This document shows positions 34,729 through 40,965 of a stretch of DNA of 64,000 bases, piece after piece. The stretch is from assembly GCA_045635865.1 (NCBI GenBank), contig JAZTWK010000055.1:11230-75229 (forward strand), written 5' to 3'. The notes under the pieces were generated by a model. The model worked only from the letters and a program-made list of their open reading frames with translations, did no database searches and had not been told where the DNA came from. How positions within the stretch are numbered: position 1 is the first letter of the stretch; every line of letters begins with the position of its first letter. A program made the position numbers and the translations under genes. The DNA comes from Victivallaceae bacterium (GTDB taxonomy: Bacteria > Verrucomicrobiota > Lentisphaeria > Victivallales > Victivallaceae).

Positions 34729-34856
34729 AAGTCACCAAAAGTTGTGGGTTTTCAATGGTTCAGCTATACTATATCGCGCTAAGCGCCACAAAACAACCGA
34801 AAAGGATTGTAAAAAGTTACTTTTATCTTGCGATTTCCTCCACGCTAGCGCGCAAC

Positions 34857-34885
34857 TTGCAATCCACCGCCAAGGTGGATATATT
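34857..34885 (+). promoter_or_regulatory. sigma-70-type promoter TTGCAA-N17-TATATT whose whole spacer is a palindrome (TCCACC-GCCAA-GGTGGA)
   Basis: -35 at 34857-34862; the spacer at 34863-34879 is a 6-bp-arm inverted repeat; -10 at 34880-34885. It lies directly upstream of the AT-rich cassette. Confidence 0.5.
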
Positions 34886-34929
34886 ACACTGATGGCAAGT
34901 TTCTGATGTTAAAAAAGGGAGAAAGAGAA

Positions 34930-35571
34930 ATGCAGACGGACGACCAATCGCATGATGTATCAATCGCGCTGGAATTACTGCTTAACACTTTGATTGAAGA
35001 ACGCGGGCGCATCTTTTCTTTCGGCGAAAAGGCGATGAGCAAGCAGGATAAAGATACCGCCAAAGCCGTACTGGATTTTGCCGACAAACTGGAAGGATTT
35101 GAAGCGAAAGTCCAATCGCTGACGAAAGAATGGCAAGTTCTGGAATCTCAAAAGCTCAAAGCATCGCCGTCGGTGCAGAAAATCGTTGATGCCGGCGGTA
35201 AACTTTTCGGCTTGAAGACCAGAAAAGCTCAATCTGGTATCAAACGGGAGTTTCAGCATCCCAAGGCGCCGAAGAGCAATATTGTTGTTACTTTTCCCGC
35301 CGAGGGCAAAGAATTCAAGACCGAAAAGGCAGGAAAAACCTTTGCCCAAGTGATCGACTATATCGGCGCCGAGCGAGTTCAGCAGTTAAAATTGATTTGT
35401 TGCGGCGAGCCGCTGGTTTCATCCACGCCGAGCAAAAAATATCCTTCCAACTGCCACAAGATCAGCAAGGGATTTTTCGTTCTAACCCAGTCAAGCACAA
35501 AGCGAAAGATAGATTACTTGAATACTATCGCAAAACTGCTGAAACTTAAGACTCGCATCAAGATTTTTTGA
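34930..35571 (+). CDS. hypothetical protein (N-terminal coiled-coil-like, Lys-rich middle, conserved-looking C-terminal domain)
   Basis: The ATG at 34930 is preceded by GGGAG; an alternative ATG lies at 34906. 213 aa. No recognisable motif. G+C is intermediate between the host and the rest of the cassette. Confidence 0.55.
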   Translation: MQTDDQSHDVSIALELLLNTLIEERGRIFSFGEKAMSKQDKDTAKAVLDFADKLEGFEAKVQSLTKEWQVLESQKLKASPSVQKIVDAGGKLFGLKTRKAQSGIKREFQHPKAPKSNIVVTFPAEGKEFKTEKAGKTFAQVIDYIGAERVQQLKLICCGEPLVSSTPSKKYPSNCHKISKGFFVLTQSSTKRKIDYLNTIAKLLKLKTRIKIF

Positions 35572-35620
35572 TTATGATAGCTCTGGCATATTGTGTGTGG
35601 TGGGGATTGGGGAGGATTTT

Positions 35621-36433
35621 ATGGATCCATTCTTGAAGTGGGCCGGTGGAAAGCGATGGCTAATTGAGAAGAAGCTTTGCCCAATTCCACAAAGCTACAA
35701 AAGATTCTGCGAACCATTTGTTGGTAGCGGAGCAGTTTTATTTAACTTATCCCCTAAATCCGCAATCATAAGTGATATTAATCGGGATTTAATTGATACT
35801 TACCAAGCTTTGGCAGACGATTGGGAAGCCGTATATAAAATTCTCAAGGTTTATGATCAAAAACACAGCTATGATTTCTATTATAAGATAAGAAATTCAT
35901 CTCCGCAAAAGCCTTGTCTAAAGGCGGCTCGTTTCATATATCTCAATAGAACGTGTTGGAATGGATTATACAGAGTAAATCGAAAGGGGAAATTTAATGT
36001 TCCCAAGGGAACAAAAGAAAAAGTTATATTATCAACGGATGATTTTGAATCAATATCAAGGTTGTTGAAAAGATGTTCTATTCGAAATGATGATTTTCAA
36101 TCAGTAGTTGATGAAGCGCAAGAGGGTGATTTTTTATTTGTTGATCCTCCCTACACGGTAAAACACAACAACAATGGGTTTGTGAAATATAATGAAAAAA
36201 TGTTTTCTTGGGACGATCAAGTTCGGTTGGCAGGAACCATTAAAGAAGCCGCAAAAAGAGGCGTGCAAATAGTTGTAACGAATGCCAGCCATCAATGTAT
36301 CAAAGAACTTTATGAAGATTTTTTACAAATACCCATAACTAGAGCAAGTGTTATCGCGGCATCTCCTAAAAACAGAGGAGTATATGAAGAACTTGTAATC
36401 ACAAATATTGATAATGATAGTCAAGAGGGGTAA
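35621..36433 (+). CDS. Dam-family (D12 class, alpha-group) N6-adenine DNA methyltransferase
   Basis: FLKWAGGKRW, AdoMet motif EPFVGSGAV, YLNRTCWNGLYRVNRKGKFNVP, catalytic DPPY (36143-36154). The ATG at 35621 is preceded by GGAGG. Confidence 0.85.
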   Translation: MDPFLKWAGGKRWLIEKKLCPIPQSYKRFCEPFVGSGAVLFNLSPKSAIISDINRDLIDTYQALADDWEAVYKILKVYDQKHSYDFYYKIRNSSPQKPCLKAARFIYLNRTCWNGLYRVNRKGKFNVPKGTKEKVILSTDDFESISRLLKRCSIRNDDFQSVVDEAQEGDFLFVDPPYTVKHNNNGFVKYNEKMFSWDDQVRLAGTIKEAAKRGVQIVVTNASHQCIKELYEDFLQIPITRASVIAASPKNRGVYEELVITNIDNDSQEG

Positions 36434-36437
36434 GATT

Positions 36438-38705
36438 ATGGATTTTTCTGATGAATTTTCAAACTTAATTGAGCAAGATGATATCAAACGGTTGTTAAAG
36501 GATAAAAAAGATCCATGTTTGTATCAGTCTATCCCTCTAAAATACTTGCCTGTATATCAAGACGAAGGGTGGGAAATTCAAAAACAGTACAAAACAAAAG
36601 CTAGAATTAAAAAACACAAAACGCATTGGGACTATTTTGAAGGTAGAGTCTGGAGTCTAATGGCAAATTTAGGCTTCAAATATATGAATAAAGACTCTAA
36701 TTTTAAGATAAAATATTCTAAAGATGGTTTAACGAAACAAATTGATGTTTTTGCAGCAAACGACGAAGTTATTCTTATCACAGAATGTAAATCTGCAGAG
36801 AGTTCTAGAAAAAAAGATTTCAGCACAGAAATAAATGAGATCGGAAATTTGCGCGAAAAAATAATTAATCGTGTTAAACAGTTTTTTACCGGGAAGCCCA
36901 AAATAGCATTTTTGTTTTGCACAAACAATTGTATTGTAAACGAGCAAGACCAAAAGAGGATGAAAGATTCTAATATTCTCTGGTTAAACCAAGAAGACAT
37001 ACAATATTTTGAAAAACTAATAAACAGTATTCATGAGGCAACGATTTTTCAATTTCTTGGAAGAGTATTTGCTCAACAAACAATTCAAAACATGAAGAAT
37101 AAAGTCCCTGCAATAAGGGGAAATATGGGTGGACATCCTTTTTATTCGTTTGCGGTAGAGCCTGCAATTCTTTTGCAAATTTCTTATGTCCTTCATAGGG
37201 TTCAAACAACTGAAGATACATTAGAAACATATCAGCGAATTGTAAAACCTAAGCGTATTTCCGAGATCCAAAATTTTTTAGATGAGGGTAACTATTTTCC
37301 CAATGCAATTATTTTGAATATTGATACGCCAAAAGGCAATTCTCTTCAGTTTGATTCTGTCGGGAAAACCGATTACGATTCCAAAACTCAAATAGGAATT
37401 TTGCATTTGCCACAAAGATACCATTGTGCATACATAATAGATGGTCAACATCGGCTCTATGGATATGCAGGGAGCAAATTCAGGGACAGCAATACGATTC
37501 CTGTAATCGCTTTTGAAAACCTTCCCGCGGAAGAACAATCAAAGCTTTTTGTTGATATTAACAGCAAGCAAAAAACCGTTAGCAAGAATTTGCTGAACAC
37601 ATTAGATGCGGATTTGCGCTGGAATTCTCCTAATAAAGATGATGCAATAAAAGCATTAAAGTCAAAATTGCTTCAAAAATTGACAGACGACCAGCTGTCC
37701 CCATTGTATAAGTTGATTTCAACCGGGGACAACTCTGCCGCAAACAACACCAGTTTAACTCTCTCGTATTTGTGCTCGTATGGATTTGGGAAAACAAATT
37801 TTTTTGGTCAACTTCAAAAAAAGACAATTATCAAGTCCGGGTACTTGTGTGACAGAGAAGACCTTGCTGATTTGTCGCTAAAAAAATCTTTTTCTTACAT
37901 AAAAGATGCGTTAGATTTGATAAAAGAATGTATCCCCGAGCAGTGGGATTGTAGCAAAGAGCCGCCGTCTTTGTTACTCAAAAATGTCGGTGTCGCGGCA
38001 TTATTTCGTCTTCTCAATGATATTTTAGAGCATTTGCAAAACAACCATAATGTATCTTGTAATACAACAAGCGCAAAAACACTTTTTGAGAAATCTAAAG
38101 AATATCTAGAAGTATTTGCAGAAGAGTTAAAGAATGTCCCTTCCGCAGATATAGAGCAAATGTCAAAGCAATATGGTGCCGGAGGACCAGAAAAAGTTGC
38201 GCGGGAATTTCAACGCTGGATCAACAAGAAAAGAACAGATTTTAATCCCCCTGGATTAGAAGAATATATTCGTGATTCATCAGGATGCCATAATGAAGAA
38301 GTTCATGCAATGTTGCTTGAGTTTTTTGAAAAGTCTAGATTGTTTATCTTTGATAAGCTAAAAAACGAAGAGCCAGAAGCGTGGTGGGAAGAAAAGATTC
38401 CTATTAAAATACAGAAAAATTGCGCTATCGCCCAAATAAATGATGGCAACAAACACGAACATAGCTATTATGTAGAAAAATTCACTGATTTACAAGAAAT
38501 CATTGAATATAACTGGAAATGTTTAGGTGATTTTTTCCAAGATCCGCTTGCAGGCGGAAAAAGAAAAGATAAAATAAAATGGCTAGAGCGATTTGCTTCT
38601 TTTCAAATTCGGGTGACTAAACCAGCAAGAGAACCCATAACAGAAAGTGAATTTACTCTTATTTCAGAAACAATAGCAAGAGTAAACAACAAGATCAATA
38701 ATTAA
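36438..38705 (+). CDS. three-part protein: N-terminal PD-(D/E)XK nuclease-like domain + DGQHR (DndB/ParB-sulfiredoxin-like) domain + C-terminal degenerate HEPN-like region
   Basis: E68...D103(IDVF)...E116-C-K118 (ITECK) fits the PD-(D/E)XK pattern. YQRIVKPKR, IIDGQHRLYG (37440-37454) and LFVDINSKQKTVSKNL fit the DGQHR domain. The C-terminal WWEEKIP...DLQEIIEYNW...FQIRVTKPAR resembles Swt1-type HEPN, but with R-x5-R instead of Rx4-6H. The ATG lies 4 nt after the MTase stop. Confidence 0.7.
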   Translation: MDFSDEFSNLIEQDDIKRLLKDKKDPCLYQSIPLKYLPVYQDEGWEIQKQYKTKARIKKHKTHWDYFEGRVWSLMANLGFKYMNKDSNFKIKYSKDGLTKQIDVFAANDEVILITECKSAESSRKKDFSTEINEIGNLREKIINRVKQFFTGKPKIAFLFCTNNCIVNEQDQKRMKDSNILWLNQEDIQYFEKLINSIHEATIFQFLGRVFAQQTIQNMKNKVPAIRGNMGGHPFYSFAVEPAILLQISYVLHRVQTTEDTLETYQRIVKPKRISEIQNFLDEGNYFPNAIILNIDTPKGNSLQFDSVGKTDYDSKTQIGILHLPQRYHCAYIIDGQHRLYGYAGSKFRDSNTIPVIAFENLPAEEQSKLFVDINSKQKTVSKNLLNTLDADLRWNSPNKDDAIKALKSKLLQKLTDDQLSPLYKLISTGDNSAANNTSLTLSYLCSYGFGKTNFFGQLQKKTIIKSGYLCDREDLADLSLKKSFSYIKDALDLIKECIPEQWDCSKEPPSLLLKNVGVAALFRLLNDILEHLQNNHNVSCNTTSAKTLFEKSKEYLEVFAEELKNVPSADIEQMSKQYGAGGPEKVAREFQRWINKKRTDFNPPGLEEYIRDSSGCHNEEVHAMLLEFFEKSRLFIFDKLKNEEPEAWWEEKIPIKIQKNCAIAQINDGNKHEHSYYVEKFTDLQEIIEYNWKCLGDFFQDPLAGGKRKDKIKWLERFASFQIRVTKPAREPITESEFTLISETIARVNNKINN

Positions 38706-38750
38706 GCGCACAATATTTAGTCTCTTGTTGATCGGCATAAGGTAACTACT

Positions 38751-39635
38751 TTGAAAATTTGCATCAATCAGTTTTTGTCCAAAACCACAAGGATACGCCG
38801 AGCAACAAAGAAGAAATTATTGCAGGCAATTTATGATGATTTTTTCAATCATGTTGAGAGTACGGAAATCTTTATAATTGACGCTATTGAATCGCATGAG
38901 CAAAGAATAAAAAACAAGATTGATTTCCCCGCAACAAAACTCCCAACTTTCTCATTTGAAGCCGACCATCCGTCTGGGATCTATCAAACCGGCAAGATGT
39001 TTTATATTCCGAAGAAAAACCTTAAAACCACTTGTCGAGATGTTTTAAACTATCAGCTATGCTTGTATTTTGTTTGGTGTTTTGAGAAATTTGAGCAATT
39101 TTTAAGTCAGATATATGCTTATATTTGTTTTACAAAGTTGGCTGATTGGGAAATTGCCCACAACTATCAAAATGCTCCAGGAGATTTTTTGAGCACATTA
39201 GTTTTGGCTAAAAGGCACAAAGATTATAGCAAAACCATACCCAAATTGCAAGAAACTTTCCGTTTCATAGCCGACAAAGAAGAAAGTGGATTAAAGGATT
39301 ATCAACACCTAAAATGGCATATCTATTTTTTTGCAAAAATGCGAAATCATATTGTTCACTGTGCAACCGATATAGAAGATATGGCCAAGTTTCGTGAAGA
39401 CATAACTAAAAAAGTCGGTTGCACAAACTGCCGTAATTTTAAAACTTTTCTTGATAGAATGACTGCGCGGTATGTCAAGAGTGCTGAAAAATTTTTTCCG
39501 GCAAAAGTATGGCTTTTGAGCAACGATCCCCATGAGAATACTGCCACCAAGTGCGGGAGCACCAATCACGTTTTTCTGGCGTATGCTTCTTTAGTAAAAA
39601 CTGCGATAGAGAAAACTTTTTTCGGCGATATTTAG
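38751..39635 (+). CDS. hypothetical protein with HEPN-type Rx4H motif (putative RNase effector)
   Basis: FFAKMRNHIVHC: R198-N-H-I-V-H203 at nt 39342-39359, in a predicted helical context. The only in-frame start near the ORF 5' end is the TTG at 38751, with TAAGGT 7 nt upstream. 294 aa. Confidence 0.55.
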   Translation: MKICINQFLSKTTRIRRATKKKLLQAIYDDFFNHVESTEIFIIDAIESHEQRIKNKIDFPATKLPTFSFEADHPSGIYQTGKMFYIPKKNLKTTCRDVLNYQLCLYFVWCFEKFEQFLSQIYAYICFTKLADWEIAHNYQNAPGDFLSTLVLAKRHKDYSKTIPKLQETFRFIADKEESGLKDYQHLKWHIYFFAKMRNHIVHCATDIEDMAKFREDITKKVGCTNCRNFKTFLDRMTARYVKSAEKFFPAKVWLLSNDPHENTATKCGSTNHVFLAYASLVKTAIEKTFFGDI

Positions 39636-39741
39636 ACTTTTTTTGACTTTTTTGCGGATTTTTTTGGCTCTTGCCTTGATTTTGTAGCGGAGCTATGGTA
39701 TTTTTAGCCCGTCCTATAATTGAACTTTTGTGAGGTTTTTT

Positions 39742-40965
39742 ATGGCTGAATTACGCGCTTTTCACGGCCTCTTGCCCGATCCCAAAGTCGCTCATCTCGT
39801 TTCCGCCGTGCCCTACGACGTCGTCAATTCCGAGGAAGCCGCCCAACTCGCCGCCGGCAACCCCCTTTCCTTCCTCCACGTCTCCCGCCCCGAAATCGAC
39901 CTCGAGCCCGGCATCGACCTCTACGACGAAAAAGTTTACGCCCAGAGCCGCGCCGCCTTCGACCGCATCGGTAAGGAAGCCCCCCTCGTCGAGGACTCCG
40001 GCAAGCACCTCTATATCTATGAGCTTACCATGAACGGTCGCCGCCAGACCGGCGTCATCGGCGCCGCTTCCGCCGCCGAATATCGCTCCGGGATCATCAA
40101 AAAGCACGAGAAAACTCGTCAGGATAAGGAAGACGACCGCACCCGCCAAGTCATGGCGCTCCGTTCCCACACCGGCCCGGCGTTTTTCACCTATCGCGAC
40201 CACGCCGAGATCAACTCGATCGTCAACAGCGAAAAAGCGAAAGCCCCGCTCTTTGACTTCGTTTCCCCCGACGGCATCCGCCACCGCCTCTGGCGGCTTG
40301 ACGAAGCCGTTTCCGCCCGGCTCGAAGCCGCCTTCCGCTCCGGAGTCCCGGTCTTTTACATCGCCGACGGCCATCACCGTTCCGCCGCCGCCGCCCGCAC
40401 CGCCGTCGAGTGCGGCAAGCTCGATGACCCCAACGCCGAGAGCAACTACTTCCTCGCGGTCGCCTTTCCCGCTTCCGAGCTCGCGATCTTGCCCTACAAC
40501 CGCGTAGTCAAAAGTCTCAACGGCAAAAGCGAAGCCGACTTCCTCGCCGCGCTCGGCAAGGAATTTGTCGTCACTCCCACCGCCGACGCCGAAGTCAAAG
40601 CCCCCGGGCAATTCAAGTTTTATCTCAATGGCAAGTGGTATCTCGCCACCCCCAAATTTGATATTTCTCAACTCGGGGTCATCGCTTCCCTCGACGCCAG
40701 CATCCTGCAGGACCACGTCCTCGCCCCCATTCTCGGCATCGGCGACCCCCGCACCGACCAAAACATTTCCTTTGTCGGCGGCATCCGCGGCACCGGCGAG
40801 CTGGTCAAGCTCGTCGATTCCGGCAAGTTCGCCATCGCCTTTTCCATGCCCGCCGTCACCGTCGATCAGCTGATGAATATCGCCGACGCCGGCGAGATCA
40901 TGCCGCCCAAATCCACTTGGTTCGAGCCGAAACTGCGCGACGGACTGGTCTCGCACAACTTCTAA
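39742..40965 (+). CDS. DUF1015 family protein
   Basis: MAELRAFHGLLPDP...VSAVPYDVV N-terminus and ..FYIADGHHRSAAA.. motif, both characteristic of DUF1015. 407 aa. Confidence 0.8.
   Translation: MAELRAFHGLLPDPKVAHLVSAVPYDVVNSEEAAQLAAGNPLSFLHVSRPEIDLEPGIDLYDEKVYAQSRAAFDRIGKEAPLVEDSGKHLYIYELTMNGRRQTGVIGAASAAEYRSGIIKKHEKTRQDKEDDRTRQVMALRSHTGPAFFTYRDHAEINSIVNSEKAKAPLFDFVSPDGIRHRLWRLDEAVSARLEAAFRSGVPVFYIADGHHRSAAAARTAVECGKLDDPNAESNYFLAVAFPASELAILPYNRVVKSLNGKSEADFLAALGKEFVVTPTADAEVKAPGQFKFYLNGKWYLATPKFDISQLGVIASLDASILQDHVLAPILGIGDPRTDQNISFVGGIRGTGELVKLVDSGKFAIAFSMPAVTVDQLMNIADAGEIMPPKSTWFEPKLRDGLVSHNF

Follow-up and report, generated by a model that had tools for sequence, protein, structure and literature searches.

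A DGQHR-domain protein with a PD-(D/E)XK nuclease domain and a degenerate HEPN-like tail, encoded beside a Dam-family methyltransferase in a low-GC island of a Victivallaceae bacterium

We analyzed a stretch of 64,000 nucleotides (nt) from a Victivallaceae bacterium (GenBank assembly GCA_045635865.1, contig JAZTWK010000055.1, positions 11,230 to 75,229 of the forward strand; hereafter the window, in which position 1 is the first letter), centering on an open reading frame (ORF) on the + strand at 36438..38705 (ATG at 36438, stop at 38703-38705). It encodes a protein of 755 amino acids (aa) that joins a PD-(D/E)XK nuclease domain, a ParB-like DGQHR domain and a degenerate HEPN domain, and a protein identical to it (P0001) is found in NCBI. 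The gene is the third of four co-directional genes, in the order orfA, D12 methyltransferase, the three-domain gene and orfD, that make up an island of about 5 kb (approximately 34750..39750) in this Lentisphaerota genome. In the composition profile the island stands at about 37% GC against about 60% for the genome, and its borders are sharp. The methyltransferase gene (35591..36433, + strand) ends in a TAA stop codon, 4 nt past which lies the ATG of the three-domain gene, with a Shine-Dalgarno-like GAGGGG upstream of it.

The three parts had been proposed by a sequence-only reading, made from the letters and the translated ORFs, and all the peptide strings it quoted do occur in the translation at the residue numbers it gave. 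The architecture itself was confirmed by the DGQHR profile TIGR03187, by AlphaFold2 modeling followed by Foldseek searches and, at the level of the family, by the HEPN profile PF18731. The AlphaFold2 model of the whole protein, built on 113 homologues, reached a predicted local distance difference test score (pLDDT) of 90.1 and a predicted template modeling score (pTM) of 0.78. Conservation is given below either as a count out of 113 homologues in an alignment, or as a count in 80 genome loci; the latter are those most similar to our query, so distant clades such as that of plasmid pNL1 are under-sampled, and their neighborhoods were derived from simple in-house ORF calls.

The protein begins with a small alpha/beta unit (aa 1-60, 36438..36617), visible as secondary structure in the model, directly after which K61 is invariant in all 113 aligned sequences. 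The PD-(D/E)XK domain follows (aa 61-215, 36618..37082), assigned by motif conservation, fold model and Foldseek. The alignment points to four candidate catalytic residues: E68 (36639-36641) in the string FEGRVW, D103 (36744-36746) in QIDVFA, and E116 (36783-36785) and K118 (36789-36791) in ECK. This E-D-E-K tetrad is kept in 112 of the 113 homologues and in 73 of the 79 full-length copies of the 80-locus set. Residues 63-183 are modeled as helix (holding E68), strands, helix, strand, helix and strand, with the elements in the order a63-77, b82-107, b111-126, a129-147 and b155-167; D103 is placed just ahead of the strand 104-107, and E116 and K118 lie on the long strand 111-126. According to the model, this is the alpha-beta-beta-beta-alpha-beta core of PD-(D/E)XK nucleases that the sequence-only reading had expected here.

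Foldseek searches of the PDB pointed in the same direction, as the top matches were nearly all PD-(D/E)XK nuclease domains, with a probability of about 1.0 for the best. The highest ranking was Cdn1 (E=1.8e-4 and 4.7e-4), followed by VC1899, AF1548, Card1 and Can2, and further matches included McrC, the R2 RLE endonuclease and Hjc, as well as a weak one to BrxU (E=0.044, probability 0.21). At the sequence level there is a weak match to Can2 (E=0.25), in which FE..V, ..DV and ECK align residue for residue with ELDV...IECK of Can2, and weak profile matches to CARF_PDDEXK, Card1_endonuc, Hjc and NERD recur across family members. In structure the N-terminal domain is thus closest to Card1, Can2 and Cdn1, CARF-linked effectors of type III CRISPR systems. 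They share with it the E...D...ExK layout and the combination of a PD-(D/E)XK nuclease with a gating sensor domain, but the protein studied here has no CARF domain and no CRISPR context, its putative gate is ParB-like, and the sequence similarity is marginal.

The central region (aa 225-530, 37110..38027) is a DGQHR domain of the ParB/sulfiredoxin superfamily, akin to those of DndB and DpdB. It matches TIGR03187 with E=5.1e-51 and 174 bits (cutoff 58.85), and there are also matches to Pfam DndB (E=3.7e-17) and PADLOC DpdB (E=9.5e-28). In the alignment its motifs are YQR (265-267), DGQHR (335-339, 37440-37454) and FVDIN...Q (371-378). DGQHR, YQR, N375 and Q378 are kept in 113/113 homologues, and DGQHR is intact at all 80 loci. 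The scores against the equivalog models are far under their cutoffs, amounting to 32.4 vs 328 bits for DndB (TIGR03233), 91.2 vs 300 for DpdB (NF041060) and 92 vs 450 for DGQHR_dnd_1. By these profile scores the protein belongs to the DGQHR-domain family and is not an orthologue of DndB or DpdB. Pfam scans of the family gave no match to DUF262 or HNH.

The C-terminal tail (aa 615-755, 38280..38702) was assigned as an all-helical, catalytically degenerate Swt1-like HEPN domain from the model, PF18731 and the PADLOC candidate model PDC-M34B. Modeled alone it is all alpha, with a pLDDT of 95.7, and it holds the strings WW (649-650) and FQIRVTKPAREP (722-733). The Swt1-type assignment suggested by the sequence-only reading holds for the family: PF18731 (HEPN_Swt1) matched 8 of 30 diverse members with E<=0.01, and one of the 30, P0064, cleared its gathering score (27.7 vs 27.5 bits). 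The copy in our window stays below that threshold (E=0.18, 12.5 bits), while PDC-M34B matches its residues 619-702 with E=1.2e-7. Searching the tail model against the PDB by Foldseek gave no significant match, the top one being the HEPN domain protein 4nqf (E=0.74, probability 0.33), and a search against BFVD gave none at all.

In 104 of the 113 homologues the penultimate helix ends with the R-x4-H motif of HEPN RNases, which comes in two flavors, IRxKxSHPER and LRNQNxH--SYSV. When aligned to these relatives, the degenerate motif of our protein is Q723...K728 (38604-38621). The claim that the tail is degenerate therefore stands for this copy and fails as a property of the architecture; likewise, the R-x5-R (R725/R731) previously read as the remnant of the motif is displaced from the catalytic columns by two to three residues. 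In our protein and its seven closest relatives (60-77% identical) the histidine at 728 is never kept, being K or R instead, and R723 has become Q or H in seven of the eight. The HEPN-dead tail is thus a derived state of this subclade and not of the whole family.

Loss of the HEPN site was not confined to this subclade. The dyad is intact at 65 of the 80 loci, and the 15 losses, which are genuine as the alignment is anchored there by an invariant W715, are all linked to a D12 methylase (15/59 vs 0/21 elsewhere). This association is a hint only, with a rough one-sided hypergeometric p of about 0.006 that is uncorrected for phylogeny. The hosts are mostly Bacillota, with one Collinsella (Actinomycetota), the background is LRNQNxH, and the nearest neighbors of some of these copies are intact. 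The subclade of our protein lost its site on the IRxKxSHPER background, and therefore the alignment implies at least two independent losses of HEPN catalysis, each of them without loss of the domain. Such retention argues that the domain may also serve a purpose other than catalysis. As HEPN domains generally work as dimers, dimerization would be the most likely one.

A word-indexed search returned more than 2,400 homologues of the full protein, and in a pattern scan restricted to a single genome for each species there were at least 533 loci. The top 120 homologues, almost all of 745-790 aa, come from many bacterial phyla and some archaea, and are annotated merely as 'DGQHR domain-containing protein' or 'DndB'. 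An exhaustive phmmer search of 1.84 billion representatives with the nuclease domain (aa 1-215) yielded 676 clusters with E<=1e-3, and 423 with the stricter E<=1e-10. At 50% identity the family comprises about 420-680 clusters. In the top 150 of these matches the domain was N-terminal in a protein of about 750-800 aa or in an apparent fragment, and hence it is essentially specific to the three-part architecture. A search of the PDB sequences with a full-length profile found nothing. Phage origin was considered and rejected, as phage records match the DGQHR domain partially and nothing more. Natural variants with a dead HEPN site and natural variants with a dead DNase site both exist, and the gradation among the loci (DGQHR 80/80, nuclease tetrad 73/79, HEPN dyad 65/80) argues that the ParB-like domain may be the core of the machine and the two nucleases its partly redundant output modules.

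The partner of the three-domain gene encodes a Dam-family (D12) N6-adenine DNA methyltransferase (TIGR00571, E=1.8e-69; PF02086, E=2.5e-49), whose true start is likely the ATG at 35621. Its closest solved relative is DpnM (2dpm, E=5e-53), followed by the Dam proteins of E. coli and T4, all of them GATC enzymes. A D12 methylase is found near the family member at 66 of the 80 loci, 59 of the Dam family and seven of a second, larger D12 type; of the other 14 loci, three lie at a contig edge and are uninformative, and 11 have no adjacent methylase. The Dam-family gene is nearly always the one directly upstream, on the same strand, and in 41 of 45 pairs the start codon of the family member lies within 20 nt of the methylase stop codon, the modal arrangements being overlaps of 4 nt and 1 nt. 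Pairwise divergences of the two proteins correlate with r=0.73, a value reached in 0 of 2000 permutations, although shared host phylogeny may inflate such a mirror-tree correlation. For each of the three closest relatives (60-77% identical) the -1 position is occupied by the methylase, and orfA and orfD are absent. Thus, the family and its methylase show the adjacency and co-inheritance by which restriction-modification systems are recognized.

Other partners were also evident. At six loci (L043, L046, L052, L058, L068 and L071; e.g., L052, 698-6052) the gene is part of a tight four-gene operon in the order D12 methylase, DpnII endonuclease (PF04556, E=2e-94), family member and N6_N4 methylase, and a seventh locus has a looser version of it. 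A DpnII-type system (DpnM/DpnA/DpnII) thus contains the family member as an insertion between its endonuclease gene and its second methylase gene. Our island, with a methylase most similar to DpnM, lacks a DpnII endonuclease, and the three-domain protein is unrelated to DpnII, being multidomain and of a different fold class. Distant full-length homologues, on plasmid pNL1 of Novosphingobium aromaticivorans, on Agrobacterium and Rhizobium plasmids and at loci L004 and L006, have no methylase and adjoin a trio of genes encoding a short DGQHR protein (~335 aa), a radical SAM protein (~540 aa) and a GHKL/HATPase_c_3-type ATPase (~510 aa). The trio lies at 8221-12361 of L085 (pNL1, NC_009426.1), at 7350-11573 of L086 and downstream of the family member in L004 and L006, and it may be an uncharacterized DNA-modification module. 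The pNL1 homologue is 31% identical to ours over 94% of the query and matches TIGR03187 with E=4e-64 and HEPN_Swt1 with E=8e-4. An effector able to switch between modification modules would be expected to show such pairing, with a methylase at some loci and with the radical-SAM trio at others.

The module tends to have a lower GC content than its flanks (median difference -0.074; lower by at least 0.05 at 47 of 69 loci, higher by 0.05 at none), which is evidence that it is mobile. Among the frequent defense-type neighbors are an AspBHI-like Mrr enzyme, a pair of AAA_21 and HNH genes, an OLD-like ATPase, a PIN_8 protein and integrases; dnd genes were not found at the related loci. At two loci (L067, 4127-10319; L077, 7980-14245) the family member and a large D12 methylase stand together with an AAA_21 ATPase and an HNH nuclease, a pair that we take to resemble the PtuA/PtuB arrangement of Septu. 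Four loci (L001, L038, L051 and L060; e.g., L060, 5249-6862) encode a second, shorter DndB-like DGQHR paralogue (~370-540 aa) a few genes away, and in Flavobacterium paronense (L003, 6091-13056) GyrB-like and topoisomerase IV subunit A-like genes flank a family member without a methylase.

As to the island in our window, its flanks are housekeeping genes, among them a TsaD gene whose product, 72-78% identical to Victivallales/Lentisphaerota proteins, assigns the host to the phylum Lentisphaerota, and its right border is at most about 100 nt from the start of the first host gene, which encodes a DUF1015 protein (39730-40965, + strand; PF06245, E=5e-89). The island was acquired horizontally, and the acquisition looks recent. 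A search of its borders for a tRNA, an integrase and convincing flanking or direct repeats found none, and promoter and terminator scans of the island did no better than on shuffles. Within the island, scans with Pfam, NCBIfam and PADLOC detected neither dnd nor dpd genes, and there is no TGT-like dpdA nearby. In the host DNA on both sides (window positions 1-34800 and 39701-64000) two palindromes are strongly avoided: GGCC occurs 95 times vs 488 expected (observed-to-expected ratio 0.19) and CTAG twice vs 26.7 expected (ratio 0.07). The avoidance of GGCC suggests long exposure of the lineage to a HaeIII-type restriction system.

The two outer genes of the island do not seem to belong to the system. 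The first, orfA (34906..35571, + strand, 221 aa), has a GC content of about 0.46-0.50, somewhat above the remainder of the island, and no match in Pfam, NCBIfam or PADLOC. We rejected it as a component of the system as none of the 80 related loci contains it, nor do the contigs of the closest relatives, and hhalign found no relation to the three-domain family. The last, orfD (38751..39635, + strand, 294 aa), lies directly 3′ of the three-domain gene and is an orphan: it has no match in Pfam, NCBIfam or PADLOC, and among 5.8 billion proteins it finds itself alone. It contains MRNHIVH, within FFAKMRNHIVHC, a textbook-looking HEPN R-x4-H string, but matches neither MAE_28990 nor other HEPN families. 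That orfD substitutes in trans for the dead HEPN site was rejected as unsupported, since hhalign found it unrelated to the tail of the family and it has no counterpart beside the three closest HEPN-dead relatives or at the other related loci.

As early as 2013, comparative genomics had catalogued both fusions, of ParB to PD-(D/E)XK and of ParB to HEPN. Makarova et al. (PMC3632139) described the COG1479/DGQHR ParB-like core as a frequent fusion partner of HNH, PD-(D/E)xK and HEPN domains, with links to modification systems, and reported that DndB carries a HEPN domain. Anantharaman et al. (PMC3710099, Table 1) listed a Swt1-like HEPN domain fused to ParB (Saro_3948), as well as MAE_28990 HEPN operons with a ParB nuclease and a DNA methylase in restriction-modification contexts, a theme that our locus shares. 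Our full-length homologue from pNL1, a plasmid of the same strain, fits the Saro_3948 entry and may be the same gene, although RefSeq locus tags have since been renumbered; the entry mentions neither a PD-(D/E)XK domain nor a pairing with Dam, and assigns no function. These surveys contradict the view of the sequence-only reading that DGQHR paralogues were not known as nuclease fusions. The three-part family itself is catalogued and uncharacterized: searching the literature for DGQHR, DndB with HEPN, PDC-M34 and ParB-like/HEPN/methyltransferase combinations, we found no paper that characterizes the three-domain architecture, nor any report of its Dam partnership, its insertion in DpnII cassettes or its radical-SAM partner. 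PADLOC (version 2.0.0) has no model that covers the full architecture, and the PDB holds no close relative.

Among systems that were studied, stand-alone DGQHR proteins and nuclease fusions offer different precedents. DndB is an ATP-modulated DNA-binding regulator (PMC4507180; PMC10853773) and DpdB an ATPase needed for DNA modification (PMC10164549). Both share with our protein the homologous domain with YQR, DGQHR and FxxxN..Q and the association with modification genes, but our protein is about twice as long, has an added PD-(D/E)XK domain with intact catalytic residues, is partnered with an adenine methylase and has no dndCDE or dpdA neighbors. GmrSD and SspE are examples of a ParB-like NTPase coupled to a nuclease (PMC4619093; PMC10853773). 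Like SspE (of SspABCD-SspE) and GmrSD/BrxU, our protein combines an NTPase-type domain of the ParB/sulfiredoxin superfamily with a DNA nuclease on one polypeptide, has the DGQ[HQ]R, QR and FxxxN motifs and is a defense-type gene in a mobile island, and as in SspE the partner is a DNA-modification module. The fusions differ in that GmrSD and SspE join DUF262 (DGQQR) to a C-terminal HNH domain (DUF1524), whereas here the DGQHR/DndB branch is joined to an N-terminal PD-(D/E)XK domain and to HEPN as a third domain, and the partner is of the Dam type instead of a phosphorothioation module or none.

Taking these results together, and drawing every functional statement from homology and genomic context, we lean towards the view that the three-domain protein is the effector half of a two-gene module resembling a restriction-modification system, in which a DGQHR switch gates a PD-(D/E)XK DNase. 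The Dam-family methyltransferase would mark the host DNA, probably at GATC, and the protein, made from the same operon, would use its ParB-like domain as a DNA-binding switch dependent on nucleoside triphosphates (NTPs) that couples the modification state of the DNA to the nuclease domain, and the latter would cut DNA without the methyl mark. The idea of a nucleotide switch stems from the precedents of DpdB, DndB, GmrSD and SspE, and the suggestion of the sequence-only reading, a modification-sensing or NTP-gated DNase, fits reasonably with the conserved Dam partner. In most relatives the Swt1-like HEPN RNase would provide a second, RNA-directed arm, serving abortive infection or as a fail-safe. 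In our protein and its subclade, where the catalytic R and H are replaced (Q723 and K728), the tail would probably be a structural scaffold or dimerization module and the DNase would act alone.

What is least certain is whether modification blocks or stimulates the protein, and here several points weigh against the proposed scheme. Six loci hold the gene inside a DpnII cassette, where it can hardly be simply the restriction enzyme, as the cassette already has a GATC enzyme of its own. At 11 evaluable loci no methylase is adjacent, and a nuclease that cuts unmethylated DNA would endanger its host there unless the genome carries a methylase at another place. The host DNA shows no depletion of GATC (observed-to-expected ratio 1.20), though as a footprint of restriction this is uninformative for an island that looks recently acquired. 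GmrSD and SspE are modification-dependent or modification-stimulated and not blocked by modification (PMC4619093; PMC10853773), and our literature search found no biochemical or genetic work on any family member. Some of these points would sit more comfortably with an effector like SspE or GmrSD, in which the DGQHR domain recognizes N6-methyladenine (m6A) or another modified base and cleavage is stimulated by it, with host methylation as a licensing signal, as the phosphorothioate is for SspE, or with foreign, non-cognate modifications as the object of attack; the methylase would then supply the signal or guard against a specific side reaction. All the ParB-like NTPase and nuclease fusions studied so far, GmrSD, BrxU and SspE, behave in this way (PMC4619093; PMC10853773), BrxU is among our weaker Foldseek matches, and both embedding in DpnII cassettes and methylase-less copies agree better with an enzyme that spares unmethylated self DNA. 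Yet a cognate methylase would be superfluous for a classical Type IV enzyme, whereas here the two genes are tightly coupled (41/45) and co-diverge (r=0.73); the family matches neither DUF262 nor HNH, and a cutter of m6A-GATC beside a Dam methylase would be lethal. We therefore regard an effector that reads the mark as rather unlikely, and on the strength of the tight coupling to the methylase we favor classical restriction, with cleavage probably blocked by the mark.

It is less likely still that the protein is a DndB-like regulator or NTPase, its nuclease-like domains serving for DNA binding alone. Bound at target sites or close to the methylase gene, it would tune methylation, in the way that DndB keeps the dnd operon repressed, or it would deplete nucleotides. 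The homology of the central domain to DndB, an ATP-modulated negative regulator (PMC4507180; PMC10853773), and to DpdB, the accessory ATPase of a modification enzyme (PMC10164549), speaks for this role, and so does the fact that DGQHR alone is never eroded. The conservation of the nuclease tetrad in 112 and of R-x4-H in 104 of 113 homologues, however, indicates probable selection for catalysis beyond binding and makes a purely regulatory role improbable; the scores are far from the DndB and DpdB cutoffs, the island has no dnd or dpd genes, and a simple regulator is not expected alongside three different modification modules. As for a decaying or non-functional remnant, which the lost HEPN residues and the foreign composition of an island without mobility genes might suggest, we consider it very improbable. 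The 755-aa frame and all the nuclease and DGQHR motifs are intact, the tail is predicted to fold confidently, and the HEPN-dead state is common to seven relatives down to 60% identity, all full length, with the methylase kept in all three whose contigs were inspected. That HEPN-dead relatives keep both their length and their methylase indicates that this is probably a functional variant under purifying selection.

More tentatively, and with the balance somewhat against it, the family as a whole could represent widespread, unrecognized single-chain restriction effectors, in which a DGQHR switch presides over a DNase and a HEPN RNase and can be plugged into varied marking modules, our protein being a DNase-only, separation-of-function variant. 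If so, the family would combine immunity with a built-in abortive-infection arm on one polypeptide, and the marking modules would be a Dam-type methylase alone, a complete DpnII cassette or the radical-SAM/DGQHR/GHKL-ATPase trio. DGQHR domains are common in DNA-modification and defense loci, where their role is debated between regulator, ATPase helper and nuclease, and the family offers a compact, two-gene test case with an invariant DGQHR core, two recognizable nucleases and a methyl mark that is probably at GATC. How a ParB-like switch reads methylation and licenses cleavage bears on Dnd, Dpd, Ssp and GmrSD alike, and the radical-SAM module that accompanies the plasmid-borne members could be a lead to a DNA modification not yet described.

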